Part shown: piece after piece, positions 51,269 to 60,244 of the stretch
Layout: each line of letters opens with the position of its first letter
Numbering within the stretch: position 1 is the first letter of the stretch
Assembly (NCBI GenBank): GCA_964571795.1
Contig: CAZNDK010000012.1
Span: 2,029 to 66,028, forward strand
Origin: an uncultured Gemmatimonadaceae bacterium
Lineage (GTDB): Bacteria > Gemmatimonadota > Gemmatimonadetes > Gemmatimonadales > GWC2-71-9
DNA: 64,000 nt
Direction: 5' to 3'
The notes under the pieces: model-generated
Database searches by the model: none
Told to the model about the DNA's origin: nothing
The model's input: only the letters and a program-made list of their open reading frames with translations
Made by a program: the position numbers and the translations under genes

Positions 51269-52846
51269 TTACCCGGGCGCGGGGACGGCCGCGCCTTGGG
51301 CCGGCCCCGCCTCCGGAGCCCGCCGCCGGTCGAGCGTGCGGTACTGTATGGCCTCGCCCACGTGCGCCACGCCGATCTCGGCCGCGCCGTCCAGGTCGGC
51401 GATGGTGCGGGAAATCTTGAGGACCCGATGGTAGGCGCGCGCGGACAGCCCGAGCCGCGCGACGGCCTGGCGCAACAGGACCTCGACCGGCTCGGTCAGG
51501 CGGCAGAATCGGCGGATTTCACGGGCGGTCATGTGCGCGTTGGCGTGCAGGCCGGCCATGCCGACAAAGCGCTCGCGCTGGCGCCGCCGTGCCCGCTCGA
51601 CCCGCTCCCGCACTGTGGCGCTCGACTCCTCCGGCGCCTGCGAGGCGAGGTCGCGATAGGCCACGGCGGGCACCTCGAGGTGGATGTCGATACGGTCGAG
51701 CAGCGGCCCGGAGAGCCGGGAGAGGTAGCGTTCCACGTGCATCGGTGTGCAGTGGCAGCGGTGGGTCGGGTCGCCGAGGTACCCGCAGGGGCAGGGATTC
51801 ATGGCGGCGGCCAGCATGAAGCGCGCGGGGTAGCTGAGGGTGATGGCGGCGCGACTCAGGGTGACTGCACCATCCTCCAGTGGCTGCCGAAGTACCTCCA
51901 GCACGTTGGTCCGGAATTCGGGTAGTTCGTCGAGGAAGAGCACGCCGCCGTGCGCGAGGCTCACCTCGCCGGGACGTGGCGTGGAGCCACCCCCGATGAG
52001 CCCTGCATCGCTGATGGTGTGGTGTGGTGCCCGGAAGGGGCGGACCGTGCACAGCGACTGGCCCGGGGCCAGCATCCCGGCCACGCTGTGCACCTTGGTG
52101 GTTTCCAGCGCCTCGTCGAGCGCCATGCCAGGGAGGATGGAGGGGAGCCGGCGGGCGAGCATTGTCTTCCCCGCCCCGGGCGGACCGACGAGCAGGATGT
52201 TGTGCGCCCCGGCGGCGGCCACTTCCAGGGCTCGCTTCGCCCCGGCCTGCGCCCGCACGTCGCCAAAATCCACGACGTCCGCCGCCCGCTCGGCCATCAG
52301 CGCCCGCACGTCCACGCTGGTGGAGGCGAGCATCGGGCCCGCTCCGAAGTGCGCGCAAACCTCCGCCAGCGTGCGGGCGCCGCGCACCTCGATCCCCTCG
52401 ACGACCGCGGCCTCCGGAAGGTTCGCCTCGGGCAGCACGACGCCCCTGAGGCCTGCCTTCCGTGCGGCGAGGGTCATCGAGAGGGCGCCGCGCACCGGGC
52501 GGAGATCACCTTCGAGCCCCACCTCTCCCACCACGAGCTGCTCGGGGAGGCCCGCCGCATCGAGTTGCTCGCTCGCGGCCAGGATGCCGAGCGCAATCGG
52601 GAGGTCGAAGCCTGAGCCGTCCTTCCGCACGTCGGCCGGGGCCAGGTTGACCGTGATGCGCTTGAGTGGAAAGACGTACCCTGCGTTGACGAGCGCCGCA
52701 GTGACCCGCTCCCGGCCCTCCTTGACCGCGCCGTGGGGCAGGCCCACCGTGGCGACCGAGGGGAGGCCATTCGTGATGTCCACCTCGACCTCGACCAGGT
52801 AGGCGTCGATGCCGAGGACGGCGGCGGAACGGATTCGGGCAAGCAT
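51269..52846 (-). CDS. comM: YifB/ComM family Mg-chelatase-like AAA+ ATPase
   Basis: ORF 51269-52930. ATG 52846 is preceded by GGAGGTG and gives MLARIRSAAVLGIDAYLVEVEVDI... It has a Lon-S5-like N-domain, Walker A GPPGAGKTMLARR, VLFLDELPEF, and a C-terminal ...HRVLKISRTIADLDG. Confidence 0.93.
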   Translation of the reverse strand: MLARIRSAAVLGIDAYLVEVEVDITNGLPSVATVGLPHGAVKEGRERVTAALVNAGYVFPLKRITVNLAPADVRKDGSGFDLPIALGILAASEQLDAAGLPEQLVVGEVGLEGDLRPVRGALSMTLAARKAGLRGVVLPEANLPEAAVVEGIEVRGARTLAEVCAHFGAGPMLASTSVDVRALMAERAADVVDFGDVRAQAGAKRALEVAAAGAHNILLVGPPGAGKTMLARRLPSILPGMALDEALETTKVHSVAGMLAPGQSLCTVRPFRAPHHTISDAGLIGGGSTPRPGEVSLAHGGVLFLDELPEFRTNVLEVLRQPLEDGAVTLSRAAITLSYPARFMLAAAMNPCPCGYLGDPTHRCHCTPMHVERYLSRLSGPLLDRIDIHLEVPAVAYRDLASQAPEESSATVRERVERARRRQRERFVGMAGLHANAHMTAREIRRFCRLTEPVEVLLRQAVARLGLSARAYHRVLKISRTIADLDGAAEIGVAHVGEAIQYRTLDRRRAPEAGPAQGAAVPAPG

Positions 52847-52896
52847 GAGGGCGGCACCTCCGTGAAGAGCTCCACGGTAGCGCCGCCCCGTTCCGC

Positions 52897-52923
52897 CTCC
52901 CCCGTCAATCGACCGTGGGGGAG
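52897..52923 (-). terminator. Hairpin downstream of the DUF2911 array (weak terminator candidate)
   Basis: ctccccc (52897-52903) pairs with gggggag (52917-52923), a 7-bp stem with a 13-nt loop that could extend through G-U pairs. No U-tract. Confidence 0.3.
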
Positions 52924-52942
52924 TACACAATCCCGCGATGCG

Positions 52943-53869
52943 CTAGGGCACTCGAGTCCCCACGGCCTGCACCTGGTCATTCCTCCCACGAATGACGAAC
53001 CCGGTGGCCCGCCCGTCCGTCACGTCGAATTCCGTGGCCAGGCCTGGCTGCGCGTCGAAGATGCCGTATTCCTCGACGAACCCCGGGTAAAAGGCATCCG
53101 AGCCGATCGAGATCAGCAACGCGTGGTACGGCGAGTCCGAGTCTCCCGGCACCTCCCAGTCCATCTTGAGCGTGTCCGGAGTGTAGGAGACTCTCCACGT
53201 TTCGAGAGGCGGTTCGGAGTCCGGTTTTGCGGCCGTGGAATCCGGCAGCCAGCGGAGGGAGTATGTCCCGACGTACCGGCCGGCCAGCTCGGGGGCAAGC
53301 GTCAGCGGATGCGACGGTGTGACGGCAACCCGCAGCACGACCGCCCGTCCTGCCCAGGCCATCCGGAGCGCCGTCCCAGTCATGCTCACCTCGGTGAACG
53401 ACCAGGTGAGCAGCTCGGGGCCGCTCACCGAGTCGGGGGTGACCGCGAATCGTATCTGGGCGCTGTCGGGCTTCGGGTGCGCGGTGTGGAACTGCTTCGC
53501 CTTGGGATCGAGGATGACGGTCCAGTCCGTCGGCTGGACCTCCATCCAGACGGAATACTTGCCCTTCGGAAGCGGATGCCCGTTGATGGACACGTCCTTG
53601 TCCACCTCCAGCGTCGTGGCCCAGTTGGCGCCCGGCGTCCAGACCTCGCCCCAGGTGACCACCTTGCCGTAGACCGGCACGCGCGCCCGGCTGTTCGGCC
53701 GGCTGTACTCCACGGTCAGCGTGGTGCCATCAACCGTTTGGGCGACGATCGCGTGCTCGCTCGCGCGCACCTGGGCGCGGGCGCCGGCGGGAACGGCCAT
53801 CAGGGTGGCGACGACGATGGGCAACCAGCTGGCGTTGGGCATCCGTACTCCGGCAAATCGAGACATCAC
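52943..53869 (-). CDS. DUF2911 domain protein, copy 1 (plus a shared C-terminal module)
   Basis: 308 aa. The start is GTG 53869 or ATG 53866, either one overlapping the copy-2 stop. Signal peptide ...AGARAQ. Motifs: VRASEHAIVAQTVDGTTLTVEYSRP...VWTPGANWATTLEVDKDVSINGHPLPKGKYSVWMEV. Tail: ...EFDVTDGRATGFVIRG. Confidence 0.85.
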   Translation of the reverse strand: MMSRFAGVRMPNASWLPIVVATLMAVPAGARAQVRASEHAIVAQTVDGTTLTVEYSRPNSRARVPVYGKVVTWGEVWTPGANWATTLEVDKDVSINGHPLPKGKYSVWMEVQPTDWTVILDPKAKQFHTAHPKPDSAQIRFAVTPDSVSGPELLTWSFTEVSMTGTALRMAWAGRAVVLRVAVTPSHPLTLAPELAGRYVGTYSLRWLPDSTAAKPDSEPPLETWRVSYTPDTLKMDWEVPGDSDSPYHALLISIGSDAFYPGFVEEYGIFDAQPGLATEFDVTDGRATGFVIRGRNDQVQAVGTRVP

Positions 53870-54801
53870 TTCGTGCGGGTGCCCTTCCCAATCACTTCGT
53901 CATTCTCCGCCCGGACCTCGAAGCCGGTCGCCCGGCCGTCCTTCACCGTGAACTCGATGACCAGCTCGTTCGTGACGTCGAAGAGCTTCCCGTCGAGCAT
54001 GGCGCCCGGGTTGAACCAGTTGTCGCCGATCTTGATGAGCACCAGGTGCTGCCACTCCGGGAAGGGGGGCGGCACCCATTCGGTCAGCAGCATGCCGTTG
54101 GAGTACGTGACCGTCCACACCGAGGATTTCGCGAAGGCCGAGTCCGGCTGCTCCTCGGTCGTGTCGCGCGACACCCAGGCGTATTGGTAGGTGCCGGTGT
54201 AGCGCCCCGCGATGTCCGCCGGCACGGTGAGCGGATGCGACGGCGGCACCGTGACCTTGAGCGACACCGACCGGCCCGCCCAGGCCATCCGCATCGTGGT
54301 GCCCGTGGCCGACACCTCCGGGAACGACCAGGTAAGGACGTCCGGCCCGGTCCCCGCCTCCGGCGTCACGGCGAACCGCACCTGCGTGCTGTCGGGCTTG
54401 GGGTGCGCCACGTGGAAGAGGCGCGACTTCGGGTCGAAGATGACGGTCCAATCCTTCTCCTGGACCTCCATCCAGACCGAGTACTTCCCCTTCTTGAGCG
54501 GGTGGCCGTTGACGGTGATGTCCTTGTCCACCTCGAGCGTGGTGGCCCAGTTGGCGCCCGGGGTCCACACCTCGCCCAGCTCGATGACGGTCTTCGGAGC
54601 CTTGCCGGAGGCCGGCGGCGCCTTCGGCCAGATTGCCATGCGGCCGCGCACCTGCGGCCGGCTGTATTCGATGGTGAGCGTGGTGCCGTCAACGGTCTGC
54701 GCGATCACGGCGTGCTCGCTGGCGCGGATTTGCGCGCGAAGGGTTGCAGGCAGGGCAAGGCAGGCGGCGGTCAGCAGCGCAAACGCGCGGGCGCGTGTCA
54801 T
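53866..54801 (-). CDS. DUF2911 domain protein, copy 2
   Basis: ORF 53866-54876. ATG 54801 gives MTRARAFALLTAACLALPATLRAQ. The motifs match copy 1, with an extra MAIWPKAPPASGKAPKTVIEL insertion. Tail: ...EFTVKDGRATGFEVRA. Confidence 0.85.
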   Translation of the reverse strand: MTRARAFALLTAACLALPATLRAQIRASEHAVIAQTVDGTTLTIEYSRPQVRGRMAIWPKAPPASGKAPKTVIELGEVWTPGANWATTLEVDKDITVNGHPLKKGKYSVWMEVQEKDWTVIFDPKSRLFHVAHPKPDSTQVRFAVTPEAGTGPDVLTWSFPEVSATGTTMRMAWAGRSVSLKVTVPPSHPLTVPADIAGRYTGTYQYAWVSRDTTEEQPDSAFAKSSVWTVTYSNGMLLTEWVPPPFPEWQHLVLIKIGDNWFNPGAMLDGKLFDVTNELVIEFTVKDGRATGFEVRAENDEVIGKGTRTK

Positions 54802-54850
54802 CGGGACTCCCAGGAAATGCGTGAACATCGGTCCAGGCCGCGGCGATGCG

Positions 54851-55750
54851 CTACGGGATCCGGCTCCCGCGGCCAACCACCCTGTCTCCAGGCCCCCGGA
54901 TTTCGAATCCGGTCGCCCGCCCGTCCGCGAGCGCGAACTCGAAGACGAGGTCGGTCACTTCGTCGAAGATCGCGCCGTCCACTAGGGCCGCGGGGCGGAA
55001 CCAGGTGTCGGCGAGCGGGAGGAAGAGGAGGTGCTTCCACACGTCGAACGGTGGACGAGCCCACTCGCCAAGCATCCGGCCGTTCGCGTAGGACAGCACC
55101 AGCCCCGGCGTATCGCCGGCGGTCGGCGCGGGTGCCGGAGCCGCGGCGGCCGTCGGGCCGAAGATGATCGCGTAGTTGCCGGTGTACCTCCCCGCGACAT
55201 CTTCGGGAACGGGAGGCGGGGGTACCACCGGCACCATGATACGGAGCGTCACCGACTTGCCTGCCCACGCCATGCGCAGGCTGCAGCCCGCCGACGTGAC
55301 CTCGGTGAAGGACCAGGTCAGCAGGTCGGGCCCGCTGAGGTCCTCCGGTGTCACCGCAAACCGCACCTGGGCGCTGTCGGGTTTCGGGGGGTTGGTGTGG
55401 AAGGCCTTCACCTTCGTGTCGAGAATGACCGTCCATTCCGTCGGCTGCACTTCCATCCACACCGAATAGGTGCCCTTCGGGAGCGCGCGGCCGTTCACCA
55501 CCACGTCCTTGTCGACCTCGAGCGTGGTGGCCCAGTTGGCCCCCGGCGTCCAGACCTTGCCCCACGGAATGACCGCCCCGAACACCGGGGACCGCCCGCG
55601 CGCCTGCGGCCGGCCGTAGTCCACGGTGATTCGCGTTCCGTTCACCACCTGGTACACGCCGGCGCGCTCGCTGGCGCGGACCTGCGCGGCCAGGGGGGAG
55701 GCGGCCCCGAGGGCGATCACGGTGAGGCAGCACAGACGAGAGAGAGGCAT
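54851..55750 (-). CDS. DUF2911 domain protein, copy 3
   Basis: The last 299 aa of ORF 54851-56167. ATG 55750 gives MPLSRLCCLTVIALGAASPLAAQ. Same motifs as the other copies. Tail: ...EFALADGRATGFEIRG. Confidence 0.85.
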   Translation of the reverse strand: MPLSRLCCLTVIALGAASPLAAQVRASERAGVYQVVNGTRITVDYGRPQARGRSPVFGAVIPWGKVWTPGANWATTLEVDKDVVVNGRALPKGTYSVWMEVQPTEWTVILDTKVKAFHTNPPKPDSAQVRFAVTPEDLSGPDLLTWSFTEVTSAGCSLRMAWAGKSVTLRIMVPVVPPPPVPEDVAGRYTGNYAIIFGPTAAAAPAPAPTAGDTPGLVLSYANGRMLGEWARPPFDVWKHLLFLPLADTWFRPAALVDGAIFDEVTDLVFEFALADGRATGFEIRGPGDRVVGRGSRIP

Positions 55751-55778: not shown

Positions 55779-56186
55779 TCACCCGTATCGGGCGTCGATG
55801 GCGGCCCGGATTTCGTCGAGGGTCTTCCCCTGGCCGTGGAGTCGGGCCGCCAGGCGACCCTCGCCCTGGCAGATTTCGCACATCCGGGCCATGCCGGCGT
55901 TCTCGTAGCACGACAACAGGGAGTAGAAGCCGGGGAGGTCGGCGCAGCCGCACTGGCAGCGGATGCCGTCGACGATCTGCGGCACTTGCCGCACCGCCTG
56001 GAAGGCCGATGCGCAGGCCGGAAAGTCCACCAGCGCGGAGTCGGGAAGCACGTTGGCGGCCGTGATGCCGGGGCGAGGCGTGGGATGCCCCGGGCCCCGC
56101 CGGGCGGCGCCCCACAATGGCTGCGCCGTGGCCGCGCCCACCGCGGCCGTACCGCAGCAGGCCGCAATGAATTGACGCCGGGACAT
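55779..56186 (-). CDS. Cys-rich protein with a twin-arginine (Tat) signal, PCYCGC-motif-like
   Basis: The last 135 aa of ORF 55779-57080; the rest of that ORF is antisense to the kinase. ATG 56186 gives MSRRQFIAACCGTAAVGAATA (an SRRxFI Tat motif). The mature region has 7 Cys: FPAC, IRCQCGC, LLSC, MCEIC. It ends LDEIRAAIDARYG. Confidence 0.75.
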   Translation of the reverse strand: MSRRQFIAACCGTAAVGAATAQPLWGAARRGPGHPTPRPGITAANVLPDSALVDFPACASAFQAVRQVPQIVDGIRCQCGCADLPGFYSLLSCYENAGMARMCEICQGEGRLAARLHGQGKTLDEIRAAIDARYG

Positions 56187-56260: not shown

Positions 56261-59200
56261 TCACGCGAGTTCCACCACCACGACGGTGCCCCGCCCCTCC
56301 CGGCTCTCGACGCCGACCGTTCCGCCCCACCCCTCCACCAGGCGACGCACGATCGCGAGTCCCAACCCCGACCCGCTGGTCGTCGTGGAAAAGCGCGGCT
56401 CGAAGATCCGGGGCAGCAGCTCCTCCGGAATGCCGCGTCCGTCGTCCCGCACCTCGAGCCGCCGCGGCGCAACGCGCACGATGATCCGCCCGGCGCCCGC
56501 CTGGCGGGCGTTTTCGAGCAGGTTGACCAGCACTTCGCGAATCTCGTCGGGGCGCGCCCGTCCCCAGGCCTCGCCGTCCGTCTCGAGCACCACCTCCGTC
56601 CCCTCCCCCGCCAGCCGATAGAGCTGGACCACCTCGGTGGCCACGGGCCCGAGCTGCATGCGGTCGGGCGCGATGCCCGGACCCGCGGGCGCGCCGAACC
56701 GGCTGAAGGCGCGCGCGATGGTGTCGAGCCGCTCGATTTCCGCCAGGATCCGATCCGAGGTCTCCTCGAGCGCCGGCCCCAGCGCGTCGGGCCGCTCGCG
56801 GTGCACTCGGCGCAGGTGCTGGATGCCGAGTCGCATCGGGGTGAGCGGGTTCTTGATCTCGTGCGCCACCTGCCTCGCCATCTCGCCCCACGCCAGCACC
56901 CGCTCGGCGCGTGACAGTTCGGTGATGTCGTTGAGGGCGAGCACCGCCCCGCCGATGTCGTCGCTGAGCGGGGCCAGGGCCACCGCAAGCCGGTGCGTGC
57001 CGTCCTCGAGCTCGGCCTGGCTGAGCGCGGCGTCGGGCCGCGCGAGAAAGGCCGTGACCGCCTCCGCCAGCGTGGGCCACTCCCCATGGAGGGCCGCCCG
57101 GAAGTCGGTGCCGACGGCCAGCGGCTTCCCGAGGAGTTCCTCCGCCCGGGGATTGGCGACGAGGACGGTTCCGTCGGGCCCGATGCCGACGACCCCGGTC
57201 GAGACGGTGGACAGCACCGCCGCGGTCGTGCGGCGCGATTCCTCAAGCGCCACGCGGCTCTGCCGAATGTCGTCGGCCATGCGGCCGAAGGCGGCGACCA
57301 CCGGCTCGAACTCCGGCGGCGGGGTGCCGCTCTGTTCCGGCAGCGGCGCGCCCCGCCCGAGGGCAAGCGCCGAGCGCCGAAGGTCCGCCACCGGCCGGGC
57401 AAGCGCCTCTGCGACCTGCCTCGCGGCCACCAGCGCACCCGCGAGGCCGAGCAGCGTGGCCAGGAGCAGCAACCACCCGAGGTCGGCCTGGCTCGCCGCC
57501 AGCCGAAGCGCGTCCGAGCCGCGCGGGGCGGCAAGCACGACCATCTGCCCGGGATCGCCGGGACGCTCCACACGGTACCCGATCCGTCCACCCCGCCCCA
57601 GCAACGGCTCCGGCGCGGCCGATTCGACCTCTCCCCCGAACGCCAGCGAACGGAAGGCCGCCGGATCCTGTAGCGGGGCGAGCACGCCGAGGTCGGCCAG
57701 CACCGAGTCGGTCGCGGCCACCCGCGAGCCCCCGTGGTACAGCGCGAGCTCCGCGCGGTAGCGCGCCCCAAGCTCGTCGAGGCCGGTCGTGGCGGGCCCC
57801 TGGCCCTCGGCGGCGGCGCCCCGGGCCGCAACCACATCGCGTAAGACCTGCGTGATCGCTTCGTCGCGCTGCTGCTCCGCTTCCCGGTCGAGCCGGGAGA
57901 GTTCCCAGAAGGCGAATCCCACCGCCGGGATCAGGAAGAACCCGGCCAGCGCGATCGCGACCCTGACCCGGAATGACCTGCCGAGGCGCCGCCAGCCCGG
58001 CATGGCGAGCGGCATGCCGGCGATCGCCTCGGCGAGGAGCCAGATGAGGGCGAGCGCCGCCGCGTCCAGCGCCACGACGAGCGCGCCCCGGACGAGGAGC
58101 GGGAATGGCCCGCGGAGATCCACCTCCGCGTGGGTGAGGCGCACTCCGTCCACCGATTGCACCGCACGCTCTCCGTGGATGACCCACCCCTCGCGCCGCC
58201 AGCGCAGCCGGCGCGTATCGGGCTCCAGTCCCGGCGTCGGCGGCGAGAGCGTCATCCGGTAGGGCGCACCGTCGAGCGCGGCAGGATTGAGCAACGCGCC
58301 GAGCCGGTCGGGCACCAGCAGCCGGGTCTTCGGCCCGAGCGCCACCGTGAGGAGGTCGCCTGTCGCGAGGCGGACCGCCAGCAGCTGGTACACCCCCGGC
58401 ACGCCCGGCACCGTGAACACCCGTTGCGAGTCGGCGGGGCCGAGCGCGAGCGCCGCACGGTTGAGTTCCGAATCCGGCAGGGTGAGCGAGTCCAGGCCCA
58501 GGGCCGCGCGTGCGGTACCGTCCGGCCGCGAGAGGGCGAGCCTCGCTGGATAAGCCTCGAGCCCGGCGCGGGCCTGGAACCATCGCGCGTAGAGCTGTGA
58601 CGCGTCCGCCGGCGGCGGCCCGAGCCGGAGCTTCGTCCCGGCCCGGTCGAGCAGCGGGATGACGACCGGGTCGACCAGGATCCCCTGCCGCATTGCGTCC
58701 TGCTGGGCCATCTCCAGCCGGCTCTCGACGGTGGCGCCCCACGTGAGGAGCGCCGCCGCGCTGCCGGCCACGGCCGCGATCCCGCCGATCGCCGCACCCC
58801 GGTTGGCGGGGCGCGCCACCAGCAGCAACCCCGGAAGCCAGAGATAGCTGTACCACCAGTCCCACCCGTTGCCCGGGTGCCAGGCGTAGAGTCCCGCCCC
58901 GGCCGCCACGAAGGTGAGCGCCACACCCAGCCATACCGACGTGGACCGGCCATGGGCGGCCGGTGCGCCCCGGAAGAGGGCCGCCGCGATGACGGCGGGG
59001 GCCATGGCGGCCATCGCCAGCGTGAGTTGCCAGCCGAGCCAGAGCCCGAGGGTCACTCCGGCGGGAGGGGGCGTGATGCCGCGGGCCAGGTACCGAAGCA
59101 CGACTGGCGCGCCCAGGAGCAGCAGGATTCCGAGCGGCAGCGAGAACCACCGGCGGCGCGGCGGCCGGTTCCACAGCGCCACGGCCAGGAGCGTCGCGAG

Positions 59201-60244
59201 GAATGCGAGGGCGGCGAGCGCGCCCGCCGAGCGGCTCAATGGCCCCAGGGCGGGGCGGAAGAAGGCGATCGGCGAAAAGAACAGGTCGAACCCGAGCGCC
59301 TCCCCCACCGGCGCGCGTGCCAGCGCGGCCACGCCGAGCGCGAGCACCCCGTAGCGCGCGAGGGCGCTGCGTGCGGCCAGCCCCATGAGCACGACCGCGA
59401 GGGCGAGGAGCCAGCCGACCGCCCGGGTGCCCCGAGCCAACGTTGCGGCGGTGGCGTCGCCCAGCGCGGGGGGCACCGGCTCCACGCTGAACAGGAGCCG
59501 GGGGCCCGCCGTGGTCGGCTCGGTGTAGTCGAATACATCGGGAAGGTCGGGCGCGGTCCCCGCGGGGTAGACCCGGAGGCCGACTCCGGTGCGGGCACGG
59601 AAGTTCTCGGTGACGGATTGCACCCGTTCCGGGACGGCGGGCGATGCCCACACGACGACCGTGCCCACGGCGCGGCGTCCGTCGGGCGCATCGCGGGCCA
59701 CTTCGAGCACGAGATAGAAGGGATTGTCGACGGTGGAGACCGGGCGGCCGTCGCCCCGGGGTGGCAGGCGGTGCGAGCCGGCCCACGCCTGGACGCGGCC
59801 TCCCTCACCCAGCAGCGCCACGCCGGCCTCGATGGGCGCGCCGGCCACCGCCCGTTCCAGCGCGGCGAAGGCGGCTTCCGGGTCGGCCGGGGCGGCGCTG
59901 GCCACGTCGGCGAGGCGGCTGGCCAGCAGGAAGGCGGCGTGGAGGTCGCCGGCCAGGCGATCGGTGGCACGCTGCACCCGTGCAGCCTGGATGGCCGGCC
60001 AGTGACGCTCCACCTGGTCAAGCCGCCAGGCGGTGACGAGCGGCGCGAGCGCCAGCATCGCCAGCGTGAGGCCCACCGCGCGCGGTCGCCATCCGCCCCA
60101 TGGCCGCAGGCCCGGGACGGCGACCAGCGCGCCCACGCAACCGACCACGATCCACCCCGTCGCGGGCGCGCGCAGCCACTCCCCGGCAGCGAGGACCGTC
60201 AGGGCGGCTCCGGGGAGCCACCAGCGGAGCGAGGAGCGGTTCAC
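56261..60244 (-). CDS. Large polytopic sensor histidine kinase (NtrY-like transmitter)
   Basis: 1327 aa, GTG start. Order of parts: N-terminal TM segments, a periplasmic segment, a block of about 8 TM helices, a second extracytoplasmic segment, TM, HAMP, PAS, the H-box HEIKNPLTPM (His codon 56861-56863), then HATPase motifs (LVNLLENARQAG, RDDGRGIPEE, SGSGLGLAIVRR). Confidence 0.9.
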   Translation of the reverse strand: MNRSSLRWWLPGAALTVLAAGEWLRAPATGWIVVGCVGALVAVPGLRPWGGWRPRAVGLTLAMLALAPLVTAWRLDQVERHWPAIQAARVQRATDRLAGDLHAAFLLASRLADVASAAPADPEAAFAALERAVAGAPIEAGVALLGEGGRVQAWAGSHRLPPRGDGRPVSTVDNPFYLVLEVARDAPDGRRAVGTVVVWASPAVPERVQSVTENFRARTGVGLRVYPAGTAPDLPDVFDYTEPTTAGPRLLFSVEPVPPALGDATAATLARGTRAVGWLLALAVVLMGLAARSALARYGVLALGVAALARAPVGEALGFDLFFSPIAFFRPALGPLSRSAGALAALAFLATLLAVALWNRPPRRRWFSLPLGILLLLGAPVVLRYLARGITPPPAGVTLGLWLGWQLTLAMAAMAPAVIAAALFRGAPAAHGRSTSVWLGVALTFVAAGAGLYAWHPGNGWDWWYSYLWLPGLLLVARPANRGAAIGGIAAVAGSAAALLTWGATVESRLEMAQQDAMRQGILVDPVVIPLLDRAGTKLRLGPPPADASQLYARWFQARAGLEAYPARLALSRPDGTARAALGLDSLTLPDSELNRAALALGPADSQRVFTVPGVPGVYQLLAVRLATGDLLTVALGPKTRLLVPDRLGALLNPAALDGAPYRMTLSPPTPGLEPDTRRLRWRREGWVIHGERAVQSVDGVRLTHAEVDLRGPFPLLVRGALVVALDAAALALIWLLAEAIAGMPLAMPGWRRLGRSFRVRVAIALAGFFLIPAVGFAFWELSRLDREAEQQRDEAITQVLRDVVAARGAAAEGQGPATTGLDELGARYRAELALYHGGSRVAATDSVLADLGVLAPLQDPAAFRSLAFGGEVESAAPEPLLGRGGRIGYRVERPGDPGQMVVLAAPRGSDALRLAASQADLGWLLLLATLLGLAGALVAARQVAEALARPVADLRRSALALGRGAPLPEQSGTPPPEFEPVVAAFGRMADDIRQSRVALEESRRTTAAVLSTVSTGVVGIGPDGTVLVANPRAEELLGKPLAVGTDFRAALHGEWPTLAEAVTAFLARPDAALSQAELEDGTHRLAVALAPLSDDIGGAVLALNDITELSRAERVLAWGEMARQVAHEIKNPLTPMRLGIQHLRRVHRERPDALGPALEETSDRILAEIERLDTIARAFSRFGAPAGPGIAPDRMQLGPVATEVVQLYRLAGEGTEVVLETDGEAWGRARPDEIREVLVNLLENARQAGAGRIIVRVAPRRLEVRDDGRGIPEELLPRIFEPRFSTTTSGSGLGLAIVRRLVEGWGGTVGVESREGRGTVVVVELA

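Follow-up and report, generated by a model that had tools for sequence, protein, structure and literature searches.

Within the 64,000-nucleotide stretch analysed here (hereafter the window; an uncultured Gemmatimonadaceae bacterium, GenBank assembly GCA_964571795.1, contig CAZNDK010000012.1, forward-strand positions 2,029 to 66,028), three consecutive genes at 52943-55750 encode proteins with a DUF2911 domain. Based on our comparisons, we propose that they are probably old, selectively maintained paralogues of a two-domain exported protein that is paired with a CYCXC-type protein. The evolutionary and architectural parts of this account are held with high confidence. The gene of the CYCXC partner, directly upstream of the array, was missed by the first, sequence-only reading of this DNA; our comparison of gene neighbourhoods now places the array in a conserved CYCXC-DUF2911 cassette.

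The three copies, named A, B and C by ascending coordinate, all lie on the minus strand and are transcribed in the order C, B, A. Copy A (52943-53869) encodes 308 amino acids (aa) from a GTG codon, copy B (53866-54801) encodes 311 aa from MTRARAF, and copy C (54851-55750) encodes 299 aa from MPLSRL; all three reading frames are intact. Each was found both as an open reading frame (ORF) and as a match to the DUF2911 profile PF11138 (145 positions, gathering cut-off 27 bits), with 117.4 bits over profile positions 1-143 for A, 107.8 bits over 1-145 for B and 123.6 bits over 3-145 for C. The cut-off is thus exceeded over most of the profile in every copy, and a genome-level search gives the same three window matches. 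The sequence-only reading had recognised DUF2911 in the N-terminal module by eye, and the profile search bears this out (108-124 bits). Copies C and B are separated by 49 nucleotides (nt), and copies B and A overlap by 4 nt, with the GTG of copy A overlapping the stop of copy B as GTGA; an alternative ATG start of copy A at 53842 would leave a gap of 23 nt. Public databases already list the three as hypothetical or DUF2911 domain-containing proteins, and no NCBIfam model matches them.

The three proteins probably carry export signals, possibly of the Sec type, as judged from their hydrophobic core and A-Q site. A hydrophobic stretch (Kyte-Doolittle mean 2.4-2.6 over the best 10 aa) opens each protein and leads into AQ(V/I)RASE, and no conserved lipobox cysteine is present in copies A, B or C. 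The earlier description of three consecutive genes of about 300 aa, each with a signal peptide before AQ(V/I)RASE, therefore agrees with the ORF listing and the hydrophobicity profile. In the structural model of copy C, the N-terminal helix is predicted at lower confidence (block predicted local distance difference test score, pLDDT, 65-71). The QxRASE stretch just past the predicted cleavage site (window 55687-55670) is nearly invariant across the subfamily, its N-terminal Gln included, and its first four residues have pLDDT <50 in a model of the N-terminal domain. An insertion in copy B, which the sequence-only reading had also noticed, does exist; its size is 11 residues net (APPASGKAPKT, 54589-54621) and not about 20, it forms a loop, and it occurs only in the window genome and its closest relative (G011).

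The copies differ mainly in their C-terminal parts. Their pairwise protein identity is 50-57%, and the columns identical in all three amount to 87/151 (58%) in the N-terminal module and 29/112 (26%) in the C-terminal module. The high N-module identity read by eye is confirmed, the estimate of two thirds being somewhat too high. Synonymous divergence (dS) between the window paralogues is 0.7-1.2, saturated and similar in both modules, and non-synonymous divergence (dN) is 0.21-0.28 in the N module versus 0.52-0.71 in the C module, in agreement with the earlier remark that the C modules have diverged far more. Since dS is similar in the two modules, the excess divergence of the C module lies at the protein level. 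It is not explained by gene conversion keeping the N modules alike, which was rejected because dS is equally high in both modules and the trees group the copies by type and not by genome. Conservation also extends to the DNA, as had been pointed out for a 20-mer that is exact at 53616 and 54542 and has one mismatch at 55527 (3 matches against 0 in 100 shuffles). This 20-mer encodes the invariant PGANWAT; because the paralogue dS in the N module is 0.7-1.0, it can be attributed to protein constraint together with a bias in GC content at third codon positions (GC3), not to recent duplication or gene conversion.

Our comparison of orthologues points to purifying selection on all types. In 16 orthologue pairs, Nei-Gojobori estimates of omega (dN/dS) were 0.06-0.29 in the N module and 0.10-0.45 in the C module, well below 1 in both. 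Among columns with a conservation of at least 90% in the A clade and in the C clade alike, fixed differences between A and C were found in 5/79 of those in the N module and 8/25 of those in the C module (Fisher p = 0.002, which is indicative only, the test treating related sequences and columns as independent). Finding A and C as orthologue clades, with B as a grade and dN/dS <1, is what a tandem array retained by selection should give, and the data fit specialised paralogues that are retained by selection and differ mainly in the C-terminal barrel. The orthologue clades, the omega range of 0.06-0.45 and the concentration of fixed differences in the C module also speak for the subfunctionalisation that the sequence-only reading had preferred over a recent neutral duplication. 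Copy A has conserved motifs of its own in the C-terminal barrel, namely PYHA, DAFYPGF and FVIR.KDD.VQAVG in the clade consensus.

Judging from these divergences and from phylogeny, the copies are old tandem paralogues, not recent ones. In a maximum-likelihood tree, the A types form a clade with support 100/99 and the C types one with 100/100, and the B rows form an unresolved basal grade. In a 103-row tree of the family, every A, B or C row from the genus falls into one clade (31 rows; 99 in the Shimodaira-Hasegawa-like approximate likelihood ratio test, SH-aLRT), and the tandem pairs of other lineages (L051/L053/L064, L083/L090 and L076/L102) stem from separate duplications. The orthologue types span at least 12 independently assembled genomes. 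Twelve loci of the same genus share the order sensor kinase, CYCXC, one to three DUF2911 genes and yifB, so that the copy-number survey suggested by the sequence-only reading turned up one to three copies in a single syntenic slot. The combinations seen in this slot are C+B+A, C+A, C+B, B+A and B alone, and single-copy relatives are mostly B-like.

The simplest history for this pattern would start from one B-like ancestor, which was duplicated twice before the genus radiated and whose copies were later lost differentially. In such a scheme, a single B-like gene would have stood directly downstream of a CYCXC-like gene whose product is exported by the twin-arginine translocation (Tat) pathway. 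Two duplications in the lineage leading to the genus would then have placed type C next to CYCXC, followed by B and then A, and later differential loss would have left relatives with one to three copies. The window genome itself is a 2.87-Mb Gemmatimonadota metagenome-assembled genome (MAG) with five DUF2911 matches: the three of the window, one more member of their subfamily at the edge of contig C73 and, on contig C41, a protein with the canonical DUF2911+TPR architecture. The member on C73 (C73:3-520, minus strand) has the WTPGANWA signature, only its N-terminal part is assembled at the contig edge, and no CYCXC gene lies upstream of it. Three segments of at least 11 kb in G012 (contigs C6, C16 and C2; loci L018, L019 and L020) are 95-97% mutually identical, which suggests that strains were binned together or that a large repeat is present; each of them contains a divergent two-domain member of the DUF2911 family with 42% identity to copy B.

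Modelled with AlphaFold2 from an alignment of 72 sequences (pLDDT 91; predicted template modelling score, pTM, 0.77), copy C is predicted to have two all-beta domains, which answers the earlier suggestion to predict the structures of both modules. The DUF2911 domain matched by Pfam corresponds to about 55223-55687 and the predicted DUF3471-like C-terminal barrel to about 54854-55222, both on the minus strand. Modelled alone, the DUF2911 domain reached pLDDT 93 and pTM 0.88. A Foldseek search of this N-domain-only model against the PDB returned nothing significant (best E 0.14, TM-score about 0.2), nor did a search against a viral model library (best E 0.01, TM 0.19), and no fold class could be assigned to DUF2911 by fold comparison. 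Searches of PDB sequences with the full protein and with a profile of each domain likewise gave nothing significant.

Within DUF2911, the signature WTPGANWA marks, by our sequence comparison, a nearly Gemmatimonadota-specific branch to which the window copies belong. Their N-terminal 145-155 aa cover the whole PF11138 profile far over the cut-off, and the motifs S..A.V.Q, Y.RP, VW..GAN..T and G.Y are common to the window copies and to the canonical copy on C41. In contrast to the canonical architecture in the window genome, which is DUF2911 followed by TPR repeats (C41, 355 aa), the window subfamily carries WTPGANWA, has a beta-barrel as its second domain and shows an invariant QxRASE where the mature protein is predicted to begin. 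It further differs in being nearly confined to Gemmatimonadota and in being paired with a CYCXC gene. As for function, our literature search on DUF2911 yielded a single passing mention in a secretome study and nothing functional, consistent with the earlier statement that the family has no experimentally assigned function.

We suggest that the second domain is a remote relative of DUF3471. The shared module, about 120 aa long and ending in DGRATGF..R, aligns across all three copies; the second module reported earlier, there put at about 130 aa, is thus not an artefact. No Pfam match for the C-terminal domain is above threshold, the DUF3471 profile PF11954 (103 positions, gathering cut-off 29.3 bits) included. 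When 24 family members were scanned singly, 11 matched DUF3471 below the threshold, covering roughly positions 6-89 of the 103 in the profile, and essentially nothing else was matched. The best score was 24.4 bits (E 3.9e-5), obtained with a relative; copy B of the window scored 14.2 bits (E 0.06), and copy C gave no match. Because all scores lie below the gathering cut-off, we treat the C module as a remote relative and do not file it as a DUF3471 member. In the structural comparison, the full-length model of copy C had D-aminopeptidase (1ei5) as its top PDB match (E 1.1e-3, prob 0.97) and also listed Pab87 (2qmi, prob 0.44), the TM-scores of these matches being low (0.14-0.23). Both of these enzymes combine a beta-lactamase fold with a lipocalin-like barrel at the C-terminus. 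The pattern A.RY.G.Y ... L ... F ... F.F ... dG.atgf is common to DUF3471 and the window C module; the difference is that the window barrel follows a DUF2911 domain and not a serine-hydrolase domain. The likeness to the lipocalin-like tails of serine hydrolases that the sequence-only reading had sensed therefore stands as a remote relation, and formal membership does not. An hhalign comparison of the C-domain family with eight DUF3471 domains from the same genus gave a probability of 2.9%, with a template too narrow (87% mean column identity) for a fair test.

The partner gene (55779-56186, minus strand) lies 28 nt upstream of copy C and encodes a CYCXC/PCYCGC-like protein of 135 aa with seven cysteines, identified by family and Tat matches. 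Its Tat signal matches TIGR01409 with 19.1 bits, over the cut-off of 16.7, at residues 2-24 (MSRRQFIAACCG); the CYCXC homologue of locus L026 has the Tat motif SRRSFV. The protein scores 68.6 bits against NF041379 (cut-off 90) and 22.6 bits against PF13798 (cut-off 25), and close CYCXC homologues carry precomputed PF13798 matches. Like the CYCXC/OS_HP4 family described by these two models, to both of which its match is significant and below the cut-off, it has a CxCxC motif (IRCQCGC) and a CxxC motif (CEIC) at a similar size. The CYCXC family has been listed among predicted selenoprotein families, with UxxC in place of CxxC in its predicted selenoprotein members (PMC13188914); this replacement would point to redox chemistry. 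The window partner differs from the CYCXC/OS_HP4 family in being all-cysteine with no in-frame TGA, in being Tat-exported and below the equivalog cut-off (68.6 versus 90), and in being specifically coupled to DUF2911 genes.

The pairing is also found outside the genus. Our scan of species-representative genomes gave 401 relatives of the DUF2911 proteins, and neighbourhoods were counted in the best 79 loci. In 68 of these, the gene immediately before the DUF2911 gene or genes, in the same orientation, encodes a CYCXC homologue; the pairing holds down to about 37% identity of the DUF2911 proteins, and one distant pair was verified by translating the unannotated upstream gene. Single DUF2911 copies occur in 59 loci and pairs in 16; the remaining 4 loci have three copies each, in one case counting a frameshifted copy. 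The window genome has a single CYCXC copy, at the array. Wherever a genome of the genus gave a match, it had a single CYCXC gene and this gene stood at the array; the 63%-complete G010 alone gave no match. All 17 CYCXC homologues of at least 56% identity (from the window genome, 15 of the same genus and G018) adjoin an array; the search listed close Gemmatimonadota relatives only. More distant homologues from a sister family (41-49% identity) are not beside DUF2911 and have Ser/Thr kinases, Omp85 and DUF4390 as neighbours. Two loci of Gemmatimonadales (L076 and L102) have the order DUF2911, CYCXC, DUF2911, with CYCXC lying between two family members. Because linkage to the kinase and yifB is restricted to near relatives and the other flanks are not conserved, we regard CYCXC together with one or more DUF2911 genes as the conserved unit, and as a candidate functional unit.

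It is also conceivable, if unlikely, that the adjacency is inherited gene order with no functional link and that the array amounts to no more than a generic envelope protein expanded in this lineage. In favour of this, the 79 loci belong to a single phylum (nearly all are labelled Gemmatimonadota, the exceptions being one contig labelled Acidimicrobiia and one unclassified), and shared ancestry therefore inflates the count of CYCXC adjacencies; the 11 loci without the neighbour, like the C73 copy, are also what such an explanation would lead us to expect. Against this, the pair persists while its surroundings change, with the kinase and yifB present only in near relatives, and it holds down to about 37-45% protein identity in the same order, on the same strand and with a short gap. 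The second DUF2911 gene found on the other side of CYCXC in L076 and L102 is likewise difficult to explain by inherited order.

As for what the proteins do, we tentatively suggest that they act in the cell envelope as binding or carrier proteins and not as enzymes, a proposal that draws on the sequences and models and in which we place rather less than even confidence. The conserved DUF2911 domain would do a common job, possibly contacting the CYCXC redox or metal protein, and the diverged C-terminal barrels would give each paralogue a different ligand or partner. A competing explanation, about as unlikely as inherited gene order, is that DUF2911 is catalytic and that the C-barrel is an accessory for substrate gating or oligomerisation, the paralogues being isoenzymes with different substrate ranges. 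A DUF3471-like barrel C-terminal to the main domain, as in the D-aminopeptidase and Pab87 hydrolases, would be in keeping with this, as would the invariant polar residues of the subfamily (S, E, H, N, R and Q) and a tail-less beta-lactamase-family hydrolase that is divergently upstream in 9/79 loci. However, the invariant His and Glu are not kept in the canonical DUF2911 copy on C41 (aligned by eye), no recognisable nucleophile motif is present, and the PDB searches returned no fold or sequence match of the DUF2911 domain to any enzyme.

Still less probable is that the cassette handles a periplasmic metal (e.g., copper) or a metalloid, with CYCXC binding or reducing it and the DUF2911 proteins carrying it. 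The CxCxC and CxxC motifs and the Tat signal of CYCXC suit such a role, the family includes predicted UxxC selenoproteins (PMC13188914), and a TonB-dependent receptor is nearby. The proposed carriers, however, lack a conserved Cys, have one invariant His and show no Met/His-rich motif in their consensus; no metal-handling genes are among the recurrent neighbours in the 79 loci, and the neighbours of the distant same-order CYCXC homologues (Ser/Thr kinases, Omp85 and DUF4390) are not metal genes either. Finally, shared 20-mers at the DNA level and one frameshifted A-type copy in G014 might suggest a recent neutral duplication, an artefact of assembly or decay of the copies. This reading is contradicted by the protein identity, the high dS, the orthologue clades across at least 12 independently assembled genomes, the omega values well below 1 and the three intact window frames, and we consider it extremely improbable.

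Several findings weigh against the account of selected, CYCXC-paired binding proteins that we prefer. The CYCXC neighbour is missing from 11 of the 79 loci and from the family member on C73. The A-type copy of G014 (L007:7778-8705) has a single frameshift in the interdomain linker, both halves being otherwise conserved; either the copy has begun to decay or the MAG contains a sequencing error. The sequence-only reading had named a lack of DUF2911 matches, relaxed selection and frameshifted orthologues as signs that would speak against it; neither of the first two was seen, and this one frameshifted orthologue was. The relation to DUF3471 lies below the cut-off and was missed by hhalign against the narrow genus alignment, and the fixed-difference test carries the non-independence noted above. 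The binding role draws on the absence of enzyme-like features and on resemblances to barrel binders that are insignificant (best E 0.14, TM about 0.2).

Taking the cassette and the two domains together, CYCXC and the DUF2911/DUF3471-like proteins could, at the more speculative end of our proposals, constitute an undescribed two-part periplasmic system of Gemmatimonadota. It would consist of a redox-active cysteine protein acting on, or together with, two-barrel binders, with the binder triplicated here and its C-barrel diversified for three ligands or partners, possibly under the upstream kinase. If true, this would give a first functional handle on DUF2911 and CYCXC/PCYCGC, both of which are widespread exported families without an assigned function. 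The analysis itself adds three testable points: a conserved gene pair, an unrecognised lipocalin-like second domain, and up to three selected paralogues that differ mainly in that domain. Our literature search did not find the DUF3471-like domain of this branch, the pairing with CYCXC or the variation from one to three copies with orthologous types described; it gave no link between CYCXC and DUF2911 and nothing functional on CYCXC. The locus is otherwise a case of ordinary tandem duplication, specialisation and differential loss, and not a new type of system.

On the upstream side, the CYCXC gene is preceded at 74 nt by a gene for a membrane sensor histidine kinase of 1327 aa with HisKA and HATPase_c domains (56261-60244, minus strand). 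The kinase is syntenic in the 12 same-genus loci and in L030/L031 and L052, and the upstream flanks of the more distant loci among the 79 did not show it. The gaps of 74 nt (kinase-CYCXC) and 28 nt (CYCXC-C), together with the 49-nt gap and the 4-nt overlap within the array, are short, and the intervals separating the genes of the cluster yielded no promoter-like or terminator-like sites; this arrangement fits co-transcription from the kinase or the CYCXC gene onward.

In nine of the 79 loci (L068, L078, L080, L085, L091, L095, L097, L103 and L108), the CYCXC-DUF2911 pair has a divergently oriented upstream neighbour that encodes a beta-lactamase-family serine hydrolase lacking a DUF3471 tail. 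The orthologue of this hydrolase in the window genome (C41:22517-23734, 57% identity) is 3.3 kb from the DUF2911+TPR gene (C41:18198-19262), and the nearness of the hydrolase to this canonical gene may be coincidence.

Downstream of copy A, a gene for a YifB/ComM-type Mg-chelatase-like AAA+ protein (51269-52930, minus strand; PF01078 at 311 bits, with PF13541 and PF13335) is syntenic across the genus and marks the other edge of the variable-copy slot. In G005, G006 and G008 (loci L008, L009 and L010), the A-type copy and yifB stand about 3 kb apart. In one such interval (L008:2737-5625), a 963-aa frame on the opposite strand was read, without a family-library scan, as a MacB/FtsX-type permease, which indicates that the slot also accepts unrelated insertions.

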